Shown one piece after another: positions 7,021-61,029 of a stretch of DNA of 64,000 nucleotides. The stretch comes from Escherichia phage Cyrano. The notes below the pieces were generated by a model. It saw only the letters and a list, made by a program, of their open reading frames with translations. It made no database searches and was not told the DNA's origin. The DNA lies in the sequence record OV696614; one strand, 5' to 3'. Position 1 is the stretch's first letter. Each line of letters begins with the position of its first letter. Both the position numbers and the translations under genes were made by a program.

Positions 7021-7095
7021 GATGGTGTAGCTCAGTGGTAGAGCAGTTGGCTGTTAACCAACTGGTCGGTGGTTCGAATCCACCCACCATCGCCA
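7021..7095 (+). tRNA. tRNA-Asn (anticodon GTT)
   Basis: Cloverleaf read by hand: acceptor gatggtg/caccatc, anticodon loop ctGTTaa, T-loop ttcgaat, 3' CCA. Confidence 0.85.
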
Positions 7096-7097
7096 AT

Positions 7098-7173
7098 GCC
7101 GGTTTAGCTCAGTTGGTAGAGCACCTGCCTTGTAAGCAGGATGTCAGCGGTTCGAATCCGTTAACCGGCACCA
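7098..7173 (+). tRNA. tRNA-Thr (anticodon TGT)
   Basis: Acceptor gccggtt/aaccggc, anticodon loop ctTGTaa, T-loop ttcgaat, 3' CCA. Confidence 0.85.
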
Positions 7174-7181
7174 ACACAATT

Positions 7182-7268
7182 GGAGAGTAGAGAGCATGGT
7201 GCTCAAGCGGTCTTGAAAACCGTCCCATTGCGCAAGCGATGATGGTTCGATTCCATTACTCTCCGCCA
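7182..7268 (+). tRNA. tRNA-Ser (anticodon TGA), type II with long variable arm
   Basis: 87 nt; acceptor ggagagt/actctcc, anticodon loop ctTGAaa, long variable arm, T-loop ttcgatt, 3' CCA. Confidence 0.8.
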
Positions 7269-8146: not shown

Positions 8147-8267
8147 ATAACTTCTAGCTAACCACTACAGTGGCTTAAAGACCACTTCACCCTTGCGTTC
8201 AGCTTCAGCTTTAGCAGTCATGAATCGTTTGATCATTTCGACTTTGCTAGCATGGATAGTTTTAAAA

Positions 8268-23064: not shown

Positions 23065-25404
23065 ATGGCAAAAGGAAAATCCGCACTGGCACTTGCTCTG
23101 AAAAAGAAAATCGGTAGCAACGACGAAATTCAGAAAGTAACTCATTGGATTGACACAGGCTTTCCTCCGTTAAACAAAGCTATTTCCGGTCGTTACGATG
23201 GCGGTTTCCCATGTGGTCGTATCGTAGAAGTATTCGGGCCACCAAGCGCGGGGAAATGTGTTACCGCAGACACCATGCTGCTGACGGAGCGTGGAATGGT
23301 AACAGTGAAAGAACTGTTTGAGATTGAGGGGCACAAAGCAACATGCACTACTCGCGATGTAGAGCATAACGTTGGACTCATCAATGAAAATGGCGTGATA
23401 GAGAAGACCTCACACCTGACATGGAACAACCGTCGCAAATTCAAGCGTATTAAGCTGGCATCAGGCGGTTATATCGAGGCTACGTTCCGTCACCCAATCC
23501 GTGTGGTTGACGACTTAGGTAATGTCGTCTGGCGACATGCTGAAAAAATCAGTGTAGGCGACACGATTCCTTCAATGGTTGGCACACATCAATTCGGCGA
23601 TCAGCACCTGGATGCCAATATCGCAAAACTGATGGGCTATTTAATTGCTGACGGATACGTGGCCTCTGAAAATTCAGTGAATTTTTCTAACACAGATCCT
23701 TTCATCAAGGATGAGTACTACCGCCTCATTTCGCTGGTATCAGACAAGATGCCAGTTACGAGAAAACATAACGGCTCGGAAGACCATGTGCTGTTTAGCA
23801 AAGAGGTGCGTTCGCTGCTTTTTAAAGAGTATGGTCTGGAGTATGAGAAAGCTGCTGGCAAGCAGGTTCCGTTGAGTGTGCGTCGCGCCAATAGCGAGGC
23901 TCAAATTGCATTCCTTCGCGGCTACTTTGAGCTGGAATGCCACGTCAATGATGGTCGCTGCATTGAGGTTGTGAGCGCGAGTGGGCTGCTGCTACAGCAA
24001 ATTCGCCTCATGCTCCTGAATCTGGGGATTACGTCAACTATCTCTGAAAAACACGTCGCGGGTTATGAAAATACATATTACCGGCTGTCATTCAGTGGCT
24101 CTAATTACGACCTTTTTCTGTCAACGATTGGTTTCGAATCTCCGGCACGTTTATCAGTGGCAACCAAACGGGACATTGGTTTTGACCGCACTTACTCAGG
24201 CTATGTTCCGCACATCAGCGGCTTAGTGAAATCACTCTACGAGTCGCTCACCAAGACCACCCGTGAAGACTACGCTCTGGTAGACCACGTTATTGGCCGC
24301 GGCGATCGTGTCGGAATAGACAAACTGCGAGAAATCTATGTCTCCTTCATTGGCAGAAAGAATCGTTTTAACGAGCATCTGTTTGCACAACTGGCAGCGG
24401 TAATTGGCTCTAACTTGTTCTACGACGAAGTCGTGGCTATTGAGGAAGGTGAAGCACCAACGTTCGACGTAGCGATGCCGGAAACACACTCTTTCTGGTC
24501 TAACGGGATTATCAGCCACAACACATTCCTTGCAACAGCAGCGATGATCTCCGCTCAAAAACAAGATGGTCTGGCGGTATTCCTCGATCATGAAAACAGT
24601 TTTGACGTTGGCCTGGCTGTAGCCAATGGCCTGAACGCAGATGAGGATGACGGTCAGTGGGTATACAAGCAGCCAGATACCTTCGAAGACTCTGTAGAGT
24701 TGATCGGCACAATACTTAAATTGGTTCGTGATGAAGAGCTTATCCCCGAATCAGCACCTATCTGTATCGTGGCTGACTCTCTTGCGTCTATGGTTCCGAA
24801 CTCCAAAGCCGAGAAGTTCGAAAAGATGGCTGAAGGCACTGCCAAAGACAAAGATCAGCTAAACATGAACGACAATACGGCACTGGCTCGTGCGACGAGT
24901 GCGAACTTCCCTACTCTGGCTTTGTGGGCACGCAAATACAACGCCTGCATCATCTTCTTGAATCAGGTTCGCACAAAAATCGGTGTAATGTTTGGCGACC
25001 CTACTACGTCGCCAGGTGGAGATTCACCGAAGTTTTACGCTTCTGTGCGCATCCGTCTCGGTGCATCGGTGATGAAGGATGGGAAAGAGAAGATCGGCCA
25101 GGACGTAGGCGCAGAATGCATCAAAAACAAAGTTGCACCACCGTATGGCAAATGCACCTGGAAATTCTACTTCGATCCTACTCGTGGCCTCGACGTTATC
25201 GAGTCGCTCGTCGAGTACATGCTGGAAGAAGGATACCTGCCAAAGAACGCCAGCGGGCGAGTTGAAATTGGTGACAAGAAATACACCAAATCGCAGATCG
25301 TCGACATGTATCGGGAGAAGCCATTAGCAGAAATCATTGCTGCGTTACAGGCGATAGATGACCGACGAGAGAAGACATCACCAACAGAAGAACTAGAAGA
25401 TTAA
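23065..25404 (+). CDS. recA: RecA-like recombinase interrupted by an intein
   Basis: 779 aa; extein GRIVEVFGPPSAGK..TFLATAAMISAQ resembles the RecA P-loop region GRIVEIYGPESSGKTT; 422-aa insertion inside the Walker A motif. Confidence 0.85.
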   Translation: MAKGKSALALALKKKIGSNDEIQKVTHWIDTGFPPLNKAISGRYDGGFPCGRIVEVFGPPSAGKCVTADTMLLTERGMVTVKELFEIEGHKATCTTRDVEHNVGLINENGVIEKTSHLTWNNRRKFKRIKLASGGYIEATFRHPIRVVDDLGNVVWRHAEKISVGDTIPSMVGTHQFGDQHLDANIAKLMGYLIADGYVASENSVNFSNTDPFIKDEYYRLISLVSDKMPVTRKHNGSEDHVLFSKEVRSLLFKEYGLEYEKAAGKQVPLSVRRANSEAQIAFLRGYFELECHVNDGRCIEVVSASGLLLQQIRLMLLNLGITSTISEKHVAGYENTYYRLSFSGSNYDLFLSTIGFESPARLSVATKRDIGFDRTYSGYVPHISGLVKSLYESLTKTTREDYALVDHVIGRGDRVGIDKLREIYVSFIGRKNRFNEHLFAQLAAVIGSNLFYDEVVAIEEGEAPTFDVAMPETHSFWSNGIISHNTFLATAAMISAQKQDGLAVFLDHENSFDVGLAVANGLNADEDDGQWVYKQPDTFEDSVELIGTILKLVRDEELIPESAPICIVADSLASMVPNSKAEKFEKMAEGTAKDKDQLNMNDNTALARATSANFPTLALWARKYNACIIFLNQVRTKIGVMFGDPTTSPGGDSPKFYASVRIRLGASVMKDGKEKIGQDVGAECIKNKVAPPYGKCTWKFYFDPTRGLDVIESLVEYMLEEGYLPKNASGRVEIGDKKYTKSQIVDMYREKPLAEIIAALQAIDDRREKTSPTEELED
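23257..24522 (+). mobile_element. Intein with LAGLIDADG homing endonuclease domain
   Basis: Begins with Cys right after GK of the P-loop, ends SHN followed by Thr that completes GKT; LAGLIDADG-like blocks LMGYLIADGYV and FLRGYFELECHV. Confidence 0.8.
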
Positions 25405-28143: not shown

Positions 28144-28150
28144 TAGCACC

Positions 28151-28634
28151 AACCACTGCGGTGAGTAGTCTGCTCACCGCATTCGTATCCAGCTCATTAT
28201 CCACTGTAGTCAGTAACAAAACCTTCCTACATATCTGCTAACCACTGTAGCGAGTAGACAGCCTTTCATTCGCATCAAACAACCACTATGGTGAGTATTG
28301 GAGTGAGATGTCCAGCGGGTATCCACTATGGTGAGTAAGCCTTTGCTGTTTTCAGTGGATATCCACTCGCCACAGTGGATACGCTCAAAGATGAGGGCGA
28401 CAACAACCACTATAGACAGTAAATTTTCCAAGATACCCAGTGACCACTAACCTCGCAGCCCTTGTTTCATCAGTGTTAGTGATCACTAACATTTAATTCA
28501 GTATTTGCATTCTACTGCCTACAGTGGTTATCAACAGATAACGATACTCACTATAGTGGATAGCGAATTACAGATATAAGTAAGGCTCACTACAGTGGAT
28601 AGTGAGCCTTACTACTAACTACAGTGGTTGGGCT
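28151..28634. repeat. Iteron array downstream of repA (incA-like copy-control region)
   Basis: About 7 copies of aaCCACTRYRGTGAGTA then about 4 inverted copies (ctacagtgg / cactatagtgg). Confidence 0.75.
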
Positions 28635-29688
28635 ATTTGCGAGTCTTTGCCTTGCGCAACTCTTCGAGAAGCGCCAGTTCTTCTTTACTCAACATGACCA
28701 TTTTGCCTTCTTTTTCGTCAGGCACAACGTCGATAATGTCATCTTGATTCTCATCTGGGAGGCTATATTCCGTCTCATCATTATCGATTTTTGTTGATAT
28801 TTGTGCCTGGCGTAACTTTGGCCGCCTATAGTGGATGACGAAGTAGACCGAGTTTCCGCGCTTAACTTCCGTGTAATCGAGATATCCTATCTCTCGCAGC
28901 TGTTCCATAGCCTTTCTTACCGTCGCATTCTGAGTAATAGTGCGACTTGTCAGATTAAGTCTGGCGCGTAAACGGGCTAGTGATATTGGTGCCGGATCAG
29001 GCGGCAAACTTTCAATAAAAGTATAAAGCGCCTGAGCGGATTCTTTTCTTGAGAGTTCGTTTATAGCCCGGAGTTGCAGAAGAACCTTTTTGTCGAACTG
29101 GTAGAGTTCGAAAATCTTGGGATCTGCTTTCAGTTCGACCGTATCGTGCTTGACACTATATTTTGCCGTTTGCACAAGATGCGTTACGTAAAACTCATCA
29201 GAGCCTTTGCTACGGAACGAGATGGTATTTGTGGCAATACGGCTTAGCGAACTGTCCAGGCGTTTGCGTAACTTCGCTGATGACCTGGCGGTCGGAATGC
29301 CACACAGCCTTACAAACTCAACGAACGGCAACGTGACAGTATCGCCAACGACCTTGTGTTTGGCAAACGCGTGGATTATTCCCACCCACGTTTTAAAGTC
29401 GTTATCCATATCAAGCCGAAGGCCAGAGATCCTTATGTCTTCGTACCCTTCGGCTTTTGCCAGAGACAGCTGTTTGAGTTCAGCAGAGGCATCCATAGAG
29501 ACCATTTGCCCCTTTCTTCCTCTGGATGTCGATTTCAGCGTCGGAACGAAGAGGCCCAGACGCATCAAAGCAACAGGCTGAACAGTGTTATTAGTGTTAG
29601 GAACCAACGTAACAACTTCGCCTGTCTTTTTATCTGTTTCTGAAAATGCTTCAACGATCGCTATGTTTTTATTGCCGTTTTCGCTCAT
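28633..29688 (-). CDS. repA: Plasmid replication initiator RepA (P1 RepA-like)
   Basis: 351 aa; flanked by iterons; blocks [54 protein letters not shown] match my recollection of phage P1 RepA. Confidence 0.8.
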
Positions 29689-29732
29689 TCCAAATGTCTC
29701 TTGTTATTCGACGGCTTTGGTGGCCTTTGCTG

Positions 29733-29856
29733 ATTACAGTGGATAGTAGCACTCATCACAGCGGTTATCCTACCGTCTATAGTGGTTTTTCTCCTCTCTA
29801 TAGTGGTTGCTTTGCTCCCTATAGTGGATTATTCGCTCTCTATAGTGGATATCGAT
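29733..29856. repeat. Iteron array upstream of repA (origin/incC-like)
   Basis: ctctatagtggWT units at about 22-bp periodicity. Confidence 0.75.
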
Positions 29857-29898
29857 CATGTCTGAAGGCAGATGGCACAACGGTTTGAGGTGGGCGGG

Positions 29899-29971
29899 GA
29901 TCTTATTGGGTCTTTATGGGTCTCTTTGGTTCTCTTTGTGATCTGAATTACTGGATCGGGCCTGTGGATAA
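29899..29971. promoter_or_regulatory. Origin core elements: GATC sites and DnaA box
   Basis: GATC at about 29899, 29940 and 29954; perfect DnaA box tgtggataa at about 29963-29971; AT-rich stretch follows at about 30040-30110. Confidence 0.6.
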
Positions 29972-30129
29972 AAATCAGAGGATTTCAAGAACAGGTAACT
30001 CTACTCTTCTGTGGATATTTAAGGACATAAGAATCATGACTAAGAGTAGAGTTTAAAATATATCTATGTATATCAGTATGTTAATGAAGAATTAAGTCAT
30101 TAAGTTATCCATAAAAGACAATGTGCTCT

Positions 30130-30235
30130 ACTCTCTACAGTGGATATATACAGCTCTCCAGAGTGGTTGTTTTACTCTTCATAGCGGTTATTCAGCTCTC
30201 TACAGAGGTTTCTTTGCTCTCCATAGTGGATGGCA
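30130..30235. repeat. Second iteron array on far side of origin
   Basis: Five units (ctctacagtgg, ctccagagtgg, cttcatagcgg, ctctacagagg, ctccatagtgg) at 22-bp spacing. Confidence 0.7.
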
Positions 30236-30272
30236 ACACCCTTTCAGACCAGTAACCGCAACGGCTAGAGGC

Positions 30273-30330
30273 GATCGGGGATCTCTTTGGATCTTCTATT
30301 TGATCTTACTTGGGATCTCTTATTTGGATC
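30273..30330. promoter_or_regulatory. GATC cluster (probable Dam/SeqA-controlled origin element)
   Basis: Six GATC within about 58 bp at 7-13 bp spacing, followed by a DnaA-box-like agtggataa. Confidence 0.6.
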
Positions 30331-30431
30331 TATCCAGTGGATAACTGGGATAAGTAAAACAGGCAAATGCAGATTAAGGTATGCCTAATGAGTTATCGTA
30401 GCATCGGCCAATAACTACTGAAAAAACGATT

Positions 30432-41734: not shown

Positions 41735-42148
41735 ATGGCAAGAGGTATGTATGTCTTATGCGAAATTGAAGGTGTGCTGGCAAATGCCAGCCATCGTAAA
41801 TCAGTATCTGACGCGGATGCAGGCCAGCTCATTGCCGGTGATGAACTCATTTTCCCCACCAGCCGTATGTTGCGTGGTTTTGCTCGCTCAGGGGCTGAAG
41901 TGGTGCTTATCAGTAGCCGCTCTGAAACTCTTGAAGCGCCCACTAAACGATGGCTGAAAGATTTTGGCGTTGATTACGACTGGCTTCATCTCGTACCGAA
42001 TAGCACCAGTTATGAGAAGCATATTAAGCGCACATTAGCGGAGCATAAAGGCGATCTGCTTATCGCTGCGCTGGTGCACGATCCTCGACTCCGTGCCGCT
42101 TTAGCTGACTCTCATCATAGACCGGTCATCTATGAGGTGAGCAAATGA
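41735..42148 (+). CDS. hypothetical protein
   Basis: Start moved to ATG right after the thyA stop (MARGMYVL); 137 aa. Confidence 0.4.
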   Translation: MARGMYVLCEIEGVLANASHRKSVSDADAGQLIAGDELIFPTSRMLRGFARSGAEVVLISSRSETLEAPTKRWLKDFGVDYDWLHLVPNSTSYEKHIKRTLAEHKGDLLIAALVHDPRLRAALADSHHRPVIYEVSK

Positions 42149-42621
42149 AGATGATAGCTGCTGTTGGCCGTAACTATGAGATCGGCATAGCGAACGAACT
42201 GCCCTGGCGTTGTTCTACCGATCTGAAGCTATTTAAGAGACTCACCAAAAACGCCACTGTCGTTATGGGGCGTAAAACGATGGAAAGTCTCAAACGCCCT
42301 CTTCCAGAGCGTCATAACCTCGTTTTGACGCGCTCTCATGGCTTTGTACCAAATGGATTCTACCCTGCTGGTGTGGATGATGTGTTGCGATTACCAGAGC
42401 CTGTGTGGGTGATTGGCGGGGAACAAATTTACTCGCTATTCATGCCGCATGTTGAAGAGATTTGGCTCTCCCACATCGGCGTTGATGTACCAAACGCCGA
42501 TGCATTCTTCCCGGCAAGCATGATGCGTAACTTAGGCTTTGTGCCTGTTGAAACAGCTTATACCCAACGAGCCAGCGAGGAAGAGCCTGGCTTTTCGCAG
42601 ATCGTATACAGAAGGTCGTAA
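42145..42621 (+). CDS. Dihydrofolate reductase
   Basis: 158 aa; MIAAVGRNYEIG..LPW, VVMGRKT, VIGGEQIY motifs. Confidence 0.85.
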   Translation: MKMIAAVGRNYEIGIANELPWRCSTDLKLFKRLTKNATVVMGRKTMESLKRPLPERHNLVLTRSHGFVPNGFYPAGVDDVLRLPEPVWVIGGEQIYSLFMPHVEEIWLSHIGVDVPNADAFFPASMMRNLGFVPVETAYTQRASEEEPGFSQIVYRRS

Positions 42622-45466: not shown

Positions 45467-46060
45467 ATGATTGCAGCCGAAAAAATCAAACAGCGAAAGC
45501 GCGACAACTCTCTTCGTGACCTCTGGAGAACACCTGACTGGCTGTTTTCTGCCATTCAACGTTATCTTGGAGTGACATTTGATGTTGACGTTGCCTGCAA
45601 CAAGGACAATGCGAAGCTGCCTAATTTCATAGGCGTTGAGCGTGATGCTTTGAAATCTGAATGGGGACAGCCAGGTACAATTGCCTTCCTCAATCCACCC
45701 TACTCCAAAATCTCCCCCTGGATTGATGCGGCTATACGTGAGCAGGCTCGCGGAGTTACAACAGTGATGCTAATTCCTCAATCCCTCGATACAAAGTGGT
45801 ATGAGCGTGCAACAGAGTGTGCGAATGAGACGATTATTCTGTCTGGTGGCCGCGTAGCGTTTGTCGAGCCTGACGTCAATTTGGGTCAGGTAGAAGTAAA
45901 CATCAACCCCGGTGGCAGTATGCTCGTTGTTTTTCGAGGATTCTGTCAGGACGCTGGGCACTCTATAAGCAAGATCCCTTTGGACGTCATGAAAAGTCTG
46001 GGAGGGTATGATCCTGCGAATGTGATCAGGAAAAAAAGACCATCAAAGAAGGCTGCTTAG
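45467..46060 (+). CDS. DNA N6-adenine methyltransferase (phage Dam-like)
   Basis: 197 aa; catalytic motif FLNPPYS. Confidence 0.7.
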   Translation: MIAAEKIKQRKRDNSLRDLWRTPDWLFSAIQRYLGVTFDVDVACNKDNAKLPNFIGVERDALKSEWGQPGTIAFLNPPYSKISPWIDAAIREQARGVTTVMLIPQSLDTKWYERATECANETIILSGGRVAFVEPDVNLGQVEVNINPGGSMLVVFRGFCQDAGHSISKIPLDVMKSLGGYDPANVIRKKRPSKKAA

Positions 46061-57737: not shown

Positions 57738-58838
57738 TCACACTGCGCGGAATGCGATTTCGCCAGGTATTACTTCACCTTGCCAATACATTTGGGCAGC
57801 AACGCGATCTGCGAGGTCACGATAAATAGCCGTAAATTCGCTATCTGGACGACTAATAACGGTTGGTGTTCCGTTATCCAGATCTTCACGAAGAGAGATA
57901 TGAAGTGGCATTTGGCCTAACAACTGCGTGTTGTATTTCTCGGCCAGTTTCTGTGCGCCACCGGTGCCAAAAATTGGCTCGTGATGACCGCAGTTACTGC
58001 AAATATGCACACTCATGTTTTCGACGATACCCAGTACCGGCACTTCGACTTTTTCGAACATCACAATGCCTTTCTTCGCATCGATCAGCGCGATGTCTTG
58101 CGGCGTAGTTACCACAACCGCACCAGTTACAGGAATGTTCTGCGCCAGCGTCAACTGAATATCACCAGTGCCCGGCGGCATATCGAGAACGAGATAGTCC
58201 AGATCAGGCCACAGTGTTTCCTGCAACATCTGCATCAGCGCCTTGCTGGCCATCGGTCCACGCCACACCATCGCATTGTCGTCAGTGACCAGATAACCAA
58301 TTGAATTGGTTGCCAGGCCATGAGACATGATAGGTGCCATGTGAGTACCGTCAGGTGAGGTTGGACGTTGGTTTTCCGCGCCCAGCATGGTTGGAATTGA
58401 TGGCCCGTAGATATCGGCATCCAAAATACCAACTTTCGCACCTTCAGCCGCCAGCGCCAGCGCCAGGTTTACCGCCGTGGAGGATTTACCCACGCCGCCT
58501 TTACCGGAGCTGACCGCAATGATGTTCTTCACGCCATTAATGCCTGGTTGGTTTTTGACGCGCTTAAGCGTGGCAATGTTGTACGACAGCTTCCAGTCAA
58601 TAGCCTTTGCGCCAGTGATACGGAGCAGATCACCACTACATTGCTCTTTCAGATCTTCAAAAGGCTTATTCCACACGAAAGGCATGATTAGTTCGACATG
58701 CAGTGTGTCATCCATCAACGCAACATGGTGTAACGCTTTAAGCGTAGTCAGGTTGTGTTTCAGGGTTGGGTGCTGAAAATTAGCCAGCGTACCGGCTACC
58801 ATTGCTCTCAGGGCATCCGGCGATTTGGACTCGCTCAT
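57738..58838 (-). CDS. mrp: Iron-sulfur cluster carrier ATPase Mrp/ApbC
   Basis: 366 aa; P-loop SSGKGGVGKSST, CxxC motif ICSNCGHHEPIFG; enterobacterial Mrp-like; divergent from metG. Confidence 0.9.
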   Translation of the reverse strand: MSESKSPDALRAMVAGTLANFQHPTLKHNLTTLKALHHVALMDDTLHVELIMPFVWNKPFEDLKEQCSGDLLRITGAKAIDWKLSYNIATLKRVKNQPGINGVKNIIAVSSGKGGVGKSSTAVNLALALAAEGAKVGILDADIYGPSIPTMLGAENQRPTSPDGTHMAPIMSHGLATNSIGYLVTDDNAMVWRGPMASKALMQMLQETLWPDLDYLVLDMPPGTGDIQLTLAQNIPVTGAVVVTTPQDIALIDAKKGIVMFEKVEVPVLGIVENMSVHICSNCGHHEPIFGTGGAQKLAEKYNTQLLGQMPLHISLREDLDNGTPTVISRPDSEFTAIYRDLADRVAAQMYWQGEVIPGEIAFRAV

Positions 58839-58995: not shown

Positions 58996-61029
58996 ATGAC
59001 CCAAGTCGCGAAGAAAATTCTGGTGACGTGCGCGCTGCCGTACGCTAACGGCTCAATCCACCTCGGCCATATGCTGGAGCACATCCAGGCTGATGTCTGG
59101 GTTCGTTACCAGCGAATGCGCGGCCACGAGGTTAATTTCATCTGTGCCGACGATGCCCACGGTACGCCGATCATGCTGAAAGCACAGCAGCTTGGTATCA
59201 CACCGGAGCAGATGATTGGCGAAATGAGTCAGGAGCATCAGACTGATTTCGCAGGCTTTAACATCAGCTATGACAACTATCACTCGACGCACAGCGAAGA
59301 GAACCGTCAGTTGTCTGAGCTTATCTATACTCGCCTGAAAGAGAACGGTTTTATTAAAAACCGCACTATCTCTCAGTTGTACGACCCGGAAAAAGGCATG
59401 TTCCTGCCGGATCGTTTTGTGAAAGGCACCTGCCCGAAATGTAAAGCGCCAGATCAATACGGCGATAACTGTGAAGTCTGCGGCGCAACATATAGCCCGA
59501 CTGAATTGATCGAGCCGAAATCGGTGGTTTCTGGCGCTACCCCGGTAATGCGTGATTCCGAACACTTCTTCTTTGATCTGCCTTCTTTCAGCGAAATGTT
59601 GCAGGCATGGACCCGCAGCGGCGCGTTGCAGGAGCAGGTGGCAAACAAAATGCAGGAGTGGTTTGAATCTGGCCTGCAACAGTGGGATATCTCCCGCGAT
59701 GCGCCTTACTTCGGTTTTGAAATTCCGGACGCGCCGGGCAAATATTTCTACGTCTGGCTGGACGCGCCGATTGGCTACATGGGTTCCTTCAAGAATCTGT
59801 GCGACAAGCGCGGCGATACCACCAGCTTCGATGAATACTGGAAGAAAGACTCCACCGCCGAGCTGTACCACTTCATCGGTAAAGATATTGTTTACTTCCA
59901 CAGCCTGTTCTGGCCTGCCATGCTGGAAGGCAGCAACTTCCGCAAGCCGACCAACCTGTTTGTTCACGGCTATGTGACGGTGAACGGCGCGAAGATGTCC
60001 AAGTCTCGCGGCACCTTTATTAAAGCCAGCACCTGGCTGAATCATTTTGACGCTGACAGCCTGCGTTACTACTACACTGCGAAACTCTCTTCGCGCATTG
60101 ATGATATCGATCTCAACCTGGAGGATTTCGTTCAGCGCGTGAATGCCGATATCGTGAACAAAGTGGTTAACCTGGCCTCCCGTAATGCAGGCTTTATCAA
60201 CAAGCGTTTTGACGGCGTGCTGGCAAGCGAACTGGCTGACCCGCAACTGTACAAAACCTTTACTGATGCCGCTGAAGTGATTGGCGAAGCATGGGAAAGC
60301 CGTGAATTTGGTAAAGCTATCCGTGAAATCATGGCATTGGCTGACCTGGCTAACCGCTATGTCGATGAACAGGCTCCGTGGGTGGTGGCGAAGCAGGAAG
60401 GACGCGATGCCGATCTGCAGGCGATTTGCTCTATGGGCATTAACCTGTTCCGCGTGCTGATGACGTACCTGAAGCCGGTACTGCCGAAACTGACTGAACG
60501 TGCAGAAGCATTCCTGAATACAGAACTGACCTGGGATGGCATCCAGCAACCGTTGCTGGGCCATAAAGTGAATCCGTTCAAGGCACTGTATAACCGCATC
60601 GATATGAAGCAGGTTGAAGCACTGGTGGAAGCATCCAAAGAAGAAGTGAAAGCCACAGCCGCACCGGTAACTGGCCCACTGGCTGACGACCCGATTCAGG
60701 AAACTATCACCTTTGACGACTTCGCCAAAGTTGACCTGCGCGTGGCGCTGATTGAAAACGCAGAGTTTGTAGAAGGTTCTGACAAACTGCTACGCCTGAC
60801 GCTGGATCTCGGTGGTGAAAAGCGTAATGTCTTCTCAGGCATCCGTTCTGCTTATCCAGACCCACAGGCACTGATTGGTCGTCACACCATTATGGTGGCT
60901 AACCTGGCTCCGCGTAAAATGCGCTTCGGTATCTCCGAAGGCATGGTGATGGCTGCTGGCCCCGGCGGGAAAGATATCTTCCTGTTAAGCCCGGATGCTG
61001 GTGCTAAACCAGGCCACCAGGTTAAGTAA
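58996..61029 (+). CDS. metG: Methionyl-tRNA synthetase
   Basis: Start set at [26 protein letters not shown] (HIGH motif), KMSKS present, zinc-knuckle CPKC..CEVC, C-terminal tRNA-binding domain; 677 aa. Confidence 0.9.

Follow-up and report, generated by a model that had tools for sequence, protein, structure and literature searches.

The window analysed here is a 64,000-nucleotide stretch of the Escherichia phage Cyrano record OV696614, in which the region 28151-30345 contains an initiator gene flanked on both sides by arrays of short repeats. The gene, repA (28633-29688, minus strand), encodes a 351-aa protein that was assigned by Pfam matches and sequence identities to the Rep_3 initiators (WH1 and WH2 domains) of the RepFIB/P1 family. 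A RepA-like initiator on this strand had been proposed in a sequence-only reading of the same DNA, and the profile search bore this out, as Rep3_N (42.2 bits against a gathering score of 22.4; E 1.3e-10) and Rep3_C (22.6 bits against 21.1; E 1.3e-4) were both matched above their gathering scores. P1 RepA and RepFIB Rep also matched Rep3_N above the cut-off and Rep3_C just below it. The protein is 91% identical to the RepA proteins of pHCM2, pMT1 and SSU5, 59.9% identical to the Rep of F RepFIB (E 4e-142) and 47.5-48.7% identical to P1 RepA over aa 28-293 (E 1e-71 by tblastn, 5e-92 by blastp). P1 RepA is shorter (286 aa) and lacks the acidic and basic C-terminal tail (aa 294-351), which is present in RepFIB Rep. 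With RepA as the query, a sequence search of the PDB yielded nothing at E up to 1, so no solved structure corresponds to it in sequence, and a search of NCBIfam gave no meaningful match.

The repeats share the core CTAYAGTGGWT and number 24, with 12 downstream of repA, one inside the gene, and six and five in two upstream arrays. When up to one mismatch was allowed, the core was found 25 times in the 64-kb window compared with 2.57 +/- 1.57 times in shuffles, and 19 of the 25 matches fell in 28.2-30.25 kb. All 13 exact copies in the window were located in this interval. The earlier suggestion that iteron arrays lie on both sides of repA is therefore supported by an enrichment far above that of the shuffles.

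The downstream control array (28147-28633) is the analogue of P1 incA, which has the same position and also contains copies in two orientations. It follows the consensus T-R-C-T-S-N-CYAYAGTGGWT-R and comprises 11 strong copies and one weak copy, six per orientation; the two orientations had been recognised previously, and the count of about 11 is corrected to 12. Copies in the minus orientation are mostly distant from repA and those in the plus orientation mostly close to it. Both the copy number and the orientation pattern are kept in SSU5, pMT1, pHCM2 and the Enterobacter and E. coli relatives. The remaining control iteron (28818-28840, core 28826-28836) was overlooked in the sequence-only reading, and is an exact core in the 3' end of repA, where the coding strand reads ATC CAC TAT AGG and uses the rare AGG codon. 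An exact copy is found at the same place in SSU5, pMT1, pHCM2 and two further replicons (L006 and L007), and is missing in the Pantoea relative. We infer that it acts as an extra titration or handcuffing site, giving 12 + 1 control iterons in Cyrano compared with 9 in P1. A perfect palindrome in the downstream array, GTGGATATCCAC (28355-28366), was considered as a dimer operator; none of the relatives has it, and for this reason it was not accepted as a general feature. The ORFs adjoining the array are small, hypothetical and on the opposite strand.

Upstream of repA, the proximal iteron array (29726-29854) begins 37 bp from the start codon and contains six copies spaced 22, 21, 21, 21 and 21 bp apart. 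The distal array (30127-30235) contains five copies spaced 23, 21, 21 and 21 bp apart. Two upstream arrays with a 22-bp period had been described; the arrays stand, with the period revised to 21 bp, only the first intervals being 22 and 23 bp. The proximal array is 86-90% identical to relatives, compared with 63% at the 4-fold sites of repA. It is followed by a GC-rich spacer with degenerate GATC repeats (29855-29959), consisting of three GATC sites (29899, 29940 and 29954) and three GGTC/GTTC units. Identity in this repeat block is 86-95% between lineages, with the units other than GATC conserved as well. At the end of the proximal module, between the arrays, is a perfect DnaA box, TTATCCACA (29963-29971, minus strand), which had been noted correctly before and is one of three perfect boxes in the 64-kb window. 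Relatives have TTATACACA at this position.

The distal array is 83-86% identical to relatives, and is directly preceded by a DnaA-box-like sequence in the opposite orientation, TTATCCATA (30105-30113, plus strand), of which the TTATCCA core is invariant in five lineages. The array is followed by a GC-rich spacer and a cluster of six GATC sites (30236-30332), which are homologous to the Dam-methylated repeat region of P1 oriR. The sites, at 30273, 30280, 30290, 30302, 30314 and 30327, form a cluster at 30273-30330 with spacings of 7, 10, 12, 12 and 13 bp. Six GATC sites in 58 bp are unique in the window, where the next densest 60-bp stretch has three, and the Poisson expectation for such a cluster is approximately 0.02 per window. 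All six are invariant in seven relatives, some of which differ from Cyrano in both Rep and iterons. The outer end of the module is marked by a DnaA box with one mismatch, TTATCCACT (30336-30344, minus strand), that had also been missed. Of the two boxes that stand in tandem in P1 oriR, the first has exactly this sequence and the second has degenerated in Cyrano. The box beside the cluster is imperfect and variable between lineages (64-71% identity). The GATC region is a local stability minimum beside a GC clamp, as in P1, and by analogy it is likely to be the site of opening and of SeqA sequestration.

The six-GATC cluster had been placed between the two upstream arrays. It is present within 28151-30345, but lies beyond the distal array, and only four GATC sites (29854, 29899, 29940 and 29954) are found between the arrays. 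Since the cluster is beyond the distal array, the upstream region resolves into two tandem oriR-like modules, each with the order iterons, GC-rich spacer, GATC repeats and DnaA box. Judged from this order of parts, the entire origin module has been duplicated in tandem, and the region is not one origin placed between two arrays. The duplicated module is common to pMT1, pHCM2, SSU5 and a Pantoea plasmid. P1, F RepFIB and the Klebsiella relatives do not have it, and their single array has the position of the distal array of Cyrano. Both modules are 76-95% identical across lineages, compared with 59-61% for the spacer between them and 62.7% for the 4-fold sites of repA; by this measure the iterons, GATC repeats and DnaA boxes of both copies are under purifying selection.

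The spacer between the modules (29979-30100) is the least stable duplex of the replicon region. An AT-rich stretch between the arrays had been reported and is indeed present (72-78% A+T at 30020-30120), and the spacer is AT-rich in the Cyrano-type lineage only. In relatives it is not AT-rich, and its identity to them (59-61%) is on par with the 4-fold sites of repA. It was therefore rejected as a conserved unwinding element, as a spacer evolving at the neutral rate probably does not contain one.

For the division of work between the two modules, we consider it an even chance that the proximal copy is mainly an operator and auxiliary origin, with the distal copy as the main opening site. However, the proximal module is better conserved than the distal one, which is hard to reconcile with a purely auxiliary role. 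Another possibility, which we regard as doubtful, is that both modules are independent and complete origins, either redundant or used under different conditions, such as different DnaA or Dam/SeqA status, or plasmid maintenance as opposed to early replication after induction. Each module is complete, with 5-6 phased iterons, a GC spacer, repeats of the GATC type and a DnaA box, selection acts on both, and the modules of the Pantoea plasmid retain 4/5 and 5/5 GATC sites, all of which would fit with two working origins. On the other hand, the proximal module of the SSU5 lineage has lost 3/6 GATC sites and melts less readily than the distal module, a Moellerella relative has two iteron arrays and a single GATC cluster, and relatives with a single module evidently replicate well. 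Returning to a proximal operator and a distal opening site, a more tentative extension, to which we would give less than even odds, is that the duplicate is an old, selected adaptation of the SSU5/pHCM2/pMT1/pLF82/Pantoea branch, in which the copies may share the work and form a two-origin control circuit. For example, the GATC-poor proximal copy may be an operator and an origin insensitive to Dam/SeqA, and the GATC-rich distal copy an origin gated by the cell cycle. No description of a two-origin circuit was found in the literature searched, which did not extend to the early original papers on the replicons of pMT1 and pHCM2.

By analogy with P1, in which the repA promoter lies within the repA-proximal iterons, the proximal array is expected to be the site of an autoregulated repA promoter. 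The promoter scan gave 8 weak matches compared with 4.4 expected, and no convincing conserved sigma-70 promoter for repA. The best matches on the minus strand were at 29855-29828 and 30084-30057, and as neither of these plausible matches on the repA strand is conserved in relatives, no promoter was assigned to repA. An Rfam search of 27.5-31 kb returned nothing at E up to 1, so there was no sign of an antisense-RNA control element in this region.

The locus had been likened to the P1 replicon, and RepA, the order of parts and the distal oriR core show that the two are homologous, beyond a likeness in layout. In P1, which with P7 represents the IncY replicon (oriR/incC, repA, incA), a control array with copies in two orientations is likewise followed by repA, iterons phased at 21 bp, a GC-rich spacer, GATC repeats and a DnaA box. 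Its oriR can be aligned with the distal region of Cyrano at 67% identity, including an exact 21-nt block in the distal core, TTGGATCTATCCAGTGGATAA, and the GATC spacings are similar (7, 10, 12... in Cyrano and 7, 10, 11... in P1). The two also have a common duplex stability profile, in which the GATC block that comes after a GC clamp melts easily. The differences are that the P1 iterons, CCAGCACACAT, are unrelated in sequence to CTAYAGTGGWT, and that the two DnaA boxes of P1 stand in tandem in a single module, whereas Cyrano has two modules with one box each. The P1-type label can be refined further, as the nearest named relative is RepFIB, the basic replicon of the IncF plasmids F and P307, by 60% identity to the Rep of F RepFIB and by IncFIB typing. 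In F RepFIB, repA is likewise flanked by iteron arrays on both sides, and the origin likewise consists of phased iterons, a GC spacer, five or six clustered GATC sites and DnaA boxes, in one module instead of two in tandem. The iteron sequence of Cyrano is unlike that of F RepFIB, therefore a different incompatibility specificity would be expected. The non-coding layout of pHCM2, pMT1 and SSU5 is that of Cyrano, and the IncFIB replicon types include those of pHCM2, pLF82 and pMT1. At the nucleotide level the replicon is 83% identical to SSU5 and approximately 80% identical to pMT1 and pHCM2.

The SSU5-like replicons of the Klebsiella pKPHS1 type and the E. coli O169 type share the genomic slot and flanking genes with Cyrano, and their Rep is 52.9% identical to Cyrano RepA by blastp (48.8-51.5% by tblastn). 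Their six-GATC cluster has spacing identical to that of Cyrano, with approximately 78% sequence identity. Their iterons, ACCGCTGACAGCATA, are different and in a single orientation, and, as in P1, their one origin module contains two DnaA boxes in tandem. This comparison bears on whether the repeats could be a centromere or sites for a protein other than RepA, with a partition or regulatory role. In P1, parAB-parS directly follows incA, whereas no parAB-parS is adjacent in Cyrano. In a tblastn search with P1 ParA and ParB, no match in the window had an E value below 0.3, and the stretches of near-identical plasmids that were included gave none at E 1e-3. As P1-type partition genes were not found in the window, stable inheritance must rest on something else; a partition site is needed somewhere, and the large downstream array with copies in two orientations could be a candidate. 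However, a single core motif is present on both sides of repA, and the upstream 21-bp phase is typical of Rep_3 origins. Furthermore, the repeat sequence varies with the Rep (Klebsiella type, P1 and F) while the GATC and DnaA core remains constant, which is the signature of initiator-specific iterons. A centromere or a site for another protein is therefore very improbable, and the repeats are treated below as the iterons of RepA.

The window can be identified from its sequence as part of an E. coli SSU5-group phage-plasmid of the pLF82/"Cyrano" type. The published Cyrano repA primers match its repA exactly, and matches were found in 460 PLSDB plasmids, 64 of them at 99% identity or more. The near-identical ones were typed by MOB-suite as IncFIB and non-mobilizable. 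At least 80% of the window between 20 and 44 kb is present in 83 complete E. coli genomes, and among the E. coli records listed with this part, all are plasmids of approximately 107-115 kb. Near-identical DNA was found only as closed circular plasmids of this size among the records listed. The terminase, portal, capsid, tape-measure and tail genes are on the same near-identical circular plasmids, which encode a complete siphovirus, so the low-copy phage-plasmid suggested by the sequence-only reading is borne out. The SSU5 group is a well-known group of phage-plasmids with members in E. coli, Salmonella and Yersinia. For Cyrano/pLF82, 5.5 copies per chromosome have been measured, and ciprofloxacin induces Cyrano with the formation of siphovirus virions (PMC9928086); infectious particles and plasmid maintenance in lysogens have been published for this element. 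Both this SSU5-like siphovirus and P1, a myovirus, are temperate and lysogenise as plasmids.

Taken together, these comparisons indicate, with a probability of about 90%, that 28151-30345 is a functional plasmid replicon with a low copy number, and that among iteron replicons it belongs to the RepFIB/P1 family. It is highly unlikely that the repA locus is instead a relic, with leftover repeats, in a prophage that is replicated from another origin by DnaE, the helicase and the other phage proteins. DnaE, a DnaB-like helicase, NrdA and NrdB, which had been listed previously, were confirmed by Pfam, while the primase of the same list was not identified; a ligase and a RecA-like protein are also encoded in the window. 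With replication proteins of its own, the phage must have a lytic origin somewhere. However, repA is intact, and between the E. coli, Salmonella, Yersinia and Enterobacter lineages the iterons, GATC sites and DnaA boxes have diverged far less than neutral sites. The replicon type also maintains plasmids that are not phages (F RepFIB and a Pantoea plasmid), and no second plasmid-type initiator is annotated on the inspected portions of the near-identical plasmids.

As a functional replicon, the locus could work in the following way, drawing on the biology of P1 and RepFIB. RepA monomers would coat the 21-bp-phased upstream iterons and host DnaA would bind the flanking boxes. The duplex would then open in the fully Dam-methylated GATC repeats beside the GC-rich clamp. 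The distal module, the one homologous to P1, is the most likely place for this opening, and SeqA could sequester the hemimethylated GATC cluster once the origin has fired. RepA bound to the repA-proximal array would repress the promoter of repA, and the 12-iteron downstream array and the intragenic iteron could draw off RepA by titration and, through handcuffing, pair with the iterons of the origin. Titration and handcuffing together would limit the element to a few copies per chromosome.

The replicon itself is already known, as repA is annotated in hundreds of records and is a marker for IncFIB typing. SSU5-group phage-plasmids have been typed as IncFIB (PMC7969092; bioRxiv 10.1101/2025.09.12.675607). 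The sole addition made here is the duplicated origin module with purifying selection on both copies, a small, testable point for plasmid biologists. The RepA region of pMT1 was reportedly likened to RepFIB and P1/P7 in the 1998 sequence papers of that plasmid. SSU5-group elements matter in practice, as they carry resistance genes, such as CTX-M, and virulence genes, as with pMT1 of Yersinia pestis. A map of the origin and copy control could therefore be useful for typing, curing and changes in copy number.

Outside the basic replicon, the Dam-like methyltransferase that had been noted elsewhere in the window was recovered at 45467-46060 (plus strand) as a predicted phage-type Dam N6-adenine methyltransferase (Pfam PF05869, E 2.5e-38), and is an accessory gene.

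The repA gene (28633-29688, minus strand) is predicted to encode a plasmid initiator of 351 aa, and a Pfam profile search of this RepA protein placed both Rep_3 domains above their gathering scores (Rep3_N/WH1, 42.2 bits, E 1.3e-10; Rep3_C/WH2, 22.6 bits), which bears out the RepA-like initiator of the sequence-only reading, in which 28151-30345 was claimed as a P1-type replicon. For both P1 RepA and RepFIB Rep, Rep3_N was found above and Rep3_C just below the cut-off. RepA was about 91% identical to the RepA of pHCM2, pMT1 and SSU5, followed by the F-plasmid RepFIB Rep (59.9%, E 4e-142), the Klebsiella pKPHS1-type Rep (52.9%, E 8e-104) and P1 RepA (48.7%, E 5e-92); it is longer than P1 RepA, with a C-terminal tail that is common to RepA and RepFIB. 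The Rep ORF annotated in two relatives, from Klebsiella (L008 1552-2769) and E. coli O169 (L009 1573-2787), is 405 aa long and extends through the plasmid's five origin iterons; its start codon is probably over-extended, with the true start near L008 position 2650.

Allowing one mismatch at most, the 64-kb window has 25 matches to the iteron core CTAYAGTGGWT, the expected binding unit of RepA, compared with 2.57 ± 1.57 in shuffles. Nineteen of these fall within 28.2-30.25 kb, and the exact cores lie in the replicon stretch without exception (13/13). With the unit extended to about 19 bp (T-R-C-T-S-N-CYAYAGTGGWT-R) there are 24 copies: 12 downstream of repA (28147-28633), six per orientation; one exact copy inside the repA 3' end (28826-28836); six in the proximal upstream array adjoining repA (29726-29854; spacing 22, 21, 21, 21 and 21); and five in the distal upstream array (30127-30235; spacing 23, 21, 21 and 21). 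The intragenic copy, read as codons ATC CAC TAT AGG, of which AGG is rare, is kept in SSU5, pMT1, pHCM2 and two other lineages but missing from the Pantoea relative, and may be an additional RepA titration site. In the downstream array two iteron halves build a perfect 12-bp palindrome, GTGGATATCCAC (28355-28366), which was found in the window's lineage only. A lone iteron-like palindrome, AACCACTACAGTGGCT (8160-8175), consists of two overlapping one-mismatch cores directly after a terminator-like hairpin, 20 kb away from the replicon, and could be either a chance occurrence or a remote RepA site.

The region upstream of repA consists of a tandemly duplicated module, its copies spaced by about 375 bp and each with the order, toward repA, of DnaA box, GATC-type repeats, GC-rich spacer and phased iterons. 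A perfect DnaA box (29963-29971) and an AT-rich stretch do lie between the two arrays, as had been claimed. The cluster of six GATC sites (30273, 30280, 30290, 30302, 30314 and 30327) is real and unique in the window, where any other 60-bp stretch has three or fewer (Poisson expectation about 0.02), but it is situated outward of the distal array and not between the arrays, where there are four GATC sites and three degenerate GGTC/GTTC units. The nearest-neighbour stability profile has the shape seen in P1, with duplex stability very high in the GC spacer and low in the easily melted GATC block that comes next. The AT-rich stretch was rejected as an unwinding element, as it lies in the neutrally evolving inter-module spacer and its counterpart in the relatives is not AT-rich. 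A promoter scan and comparison with the relatives did not locate a conserved repA promoter, and no RNA family was detected at 27.5-31 kb with Rfam.

The order of these parts is common to the window and the annotated P1 record (nine iterons in incA, then repA, then five incC iterons at 21-bp intervals that enclose the repA promoter, then five Dam sites and a pair of DnaA boxes), so the proposed oriR/incC/incA architecture holds. The distal origin core (30240-30348) shares 67% identity with P1 oriR, including the exact 21-mer TTGGATCTATCCAGTGGATAA, and 72% with the Klebsiella-type core; its GATC spacing is 7, 10, 12 compared with 7, 10, 11 in P1. The window replicon differs from that of P1 in its larger number of control iterons, in having two origin modules, and in DnaA boxes that are single where those of P1 are in tandem; it is also without the parAB-parS that P1 has beside its control array, and no homologues of P1 ParA or ParB were found in the window by tblastn. 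The iterons of P1, F, the Klebsiella type and the window are unrelated in sequence, whereas the GATC and DnaA core is common to all, a pattern expected if each initiator has iterons of its own and these are attached to a host-factor module held in common.

The module is paired in SSU5, pMT1, pHCM2 and the window itself, as it is in an Enterobacter plasmid and another lineage of E. coli. P1, F RepFIB, the E. coli O169 plasmid and the Klebsiella pKPHS1 type have one module each, and an SSU5-like plasmid from Moellerella has one GATC cluster but two iteron arrays. Alignments covering 80% or more of the 743-bp two-module region were obtained for 334 PLSDB records. The iteron core and the two-module origin of the SSU5-group phage-plasmids recur in Pantoea agglomerans pASB05p2 (207 kb; L014 2500-3065), and no phage genes were seen in the 5-kb stretch examined; therefore, this replicon type is not confined to phage-plasmids.

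Constraint was assessed as the identity of the window to four diverged relatives. This was 86-90% for the proximal iterons, 86-95% for the proximal GATC/GGTC repeats, 95% for the proximal DnaA box, 83-86% for the distal iterons and 76-77% for the distal GATC block, with six of six GATC sites invariant, compared with 59-61% for the inter-module spacer and 62.7% for repA 4-fold degenerate sites. Judged by these identities, both module copies are under constraint. This selection pattern, together with repeats that co-vary with Rep type, argues against a relic locus, which is very improbable, and equally against an array bound by a protein other than RepA, for which we see hardly any likelihood. 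That the modules are two independent origins is plausible, albeit at well below even odds. The tandem origin is the sole replicon feature for which we could not find a prior description in the literature searched; older pMT1 and pHCM2 papers and a 2026 phage-plasmid RepA preprint were outside the reach of the search, and an earlier description is possible.

By analogy with P1 and RepFIB, RepA monomers would bind the phased origin iterons and DnaA the flanking boxes, and the methylated GATC block would open, its hemimethylated form then being sequestered by SeqA. RepA on the proximal array would repress its own promoter, while the iterons downstream of and within repA would titrate RepA and handcuff the origin, giving a low copy number. 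This prediction agrees with the 5.5 plasmid copies per chromosome published for Cyrano/pLF82, for which ciprofloxacin induction and siphovirus virions were also reported (PMC9928086); the two repA qPCR primers published for "Cyrano" (plasmid pLF82, from E. coli LF82) have exact matches in the window.

Identity over the 2.5-kb region is 99-100% with 64 PLSDB plasmids from E. coli, E. albertii and Shigella (about 101-126 kb, non-mobilizable, IncFIB type), 83% with Salmonella phage SSU5 and about 80% with pMT1 of Y. pestis, pHCM2 of S. Typhi and plasmids from Enterobacter and Citrobacter. Among 5,426 complete E. coli genomes, 83 cover at least 80% of window 20-44 kb, and the records listed for them are all plasmids of about 107-115 kb. 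The near-identical plasmids also carry genes for terminase, portal, major capsid, tape-measure and tail proteins. Of the context genes named earlier, DnaE, a DnaB-like helicase, NrdA and NrdB were recovered and a primase was not identified; the Dam-like methyltransferase corresponds to a PF05869 Dam gene (45467-46060). With the corrections above, the original observation is confirmed, and its interpretation as a P1-type phage-plasmid replicon is supported. The replicon is already catalogued and belongs to a well-known phage-plasmid group, the SSU5 group, for which IncFIB typing is known (PMC7969092; bioRxiv 10.1101/2025.09.12.675607).

Other genes were also observed on the element. A RecA-like recombinase gene (23065-25404, plus strand) has its P-loop split by an intein carrying a LAGLIDADG homing endonuclease (Pfam: RecA 3e-36, Intein_splicing 2e-11, LAGLIDADG_3 2.5e-17); the near-identical plasmid CP088852 has an intein-free version of 357 aa, therefore the intein is polymorphic within the lineage. 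There is a three-tRNA cluster (7021-7268; Asn-GTT, Thr-TGT and Ser-TGA), and host-type, full-length apbC (Fe-S cluster carrier; 57738-58838, minus strand) and metG (methionyl-tRNA synthetase; about 58996-61029, plus strand), both so annotated in near-identical plasmids. A dihydrofolate reductase gene (about 42140-42620, plus strand) adjoins thymidylate synthase; in the near-identical plasmid pW170_1, PGAP calls this reductase DfrA51, a trimethoprim-resistant form.
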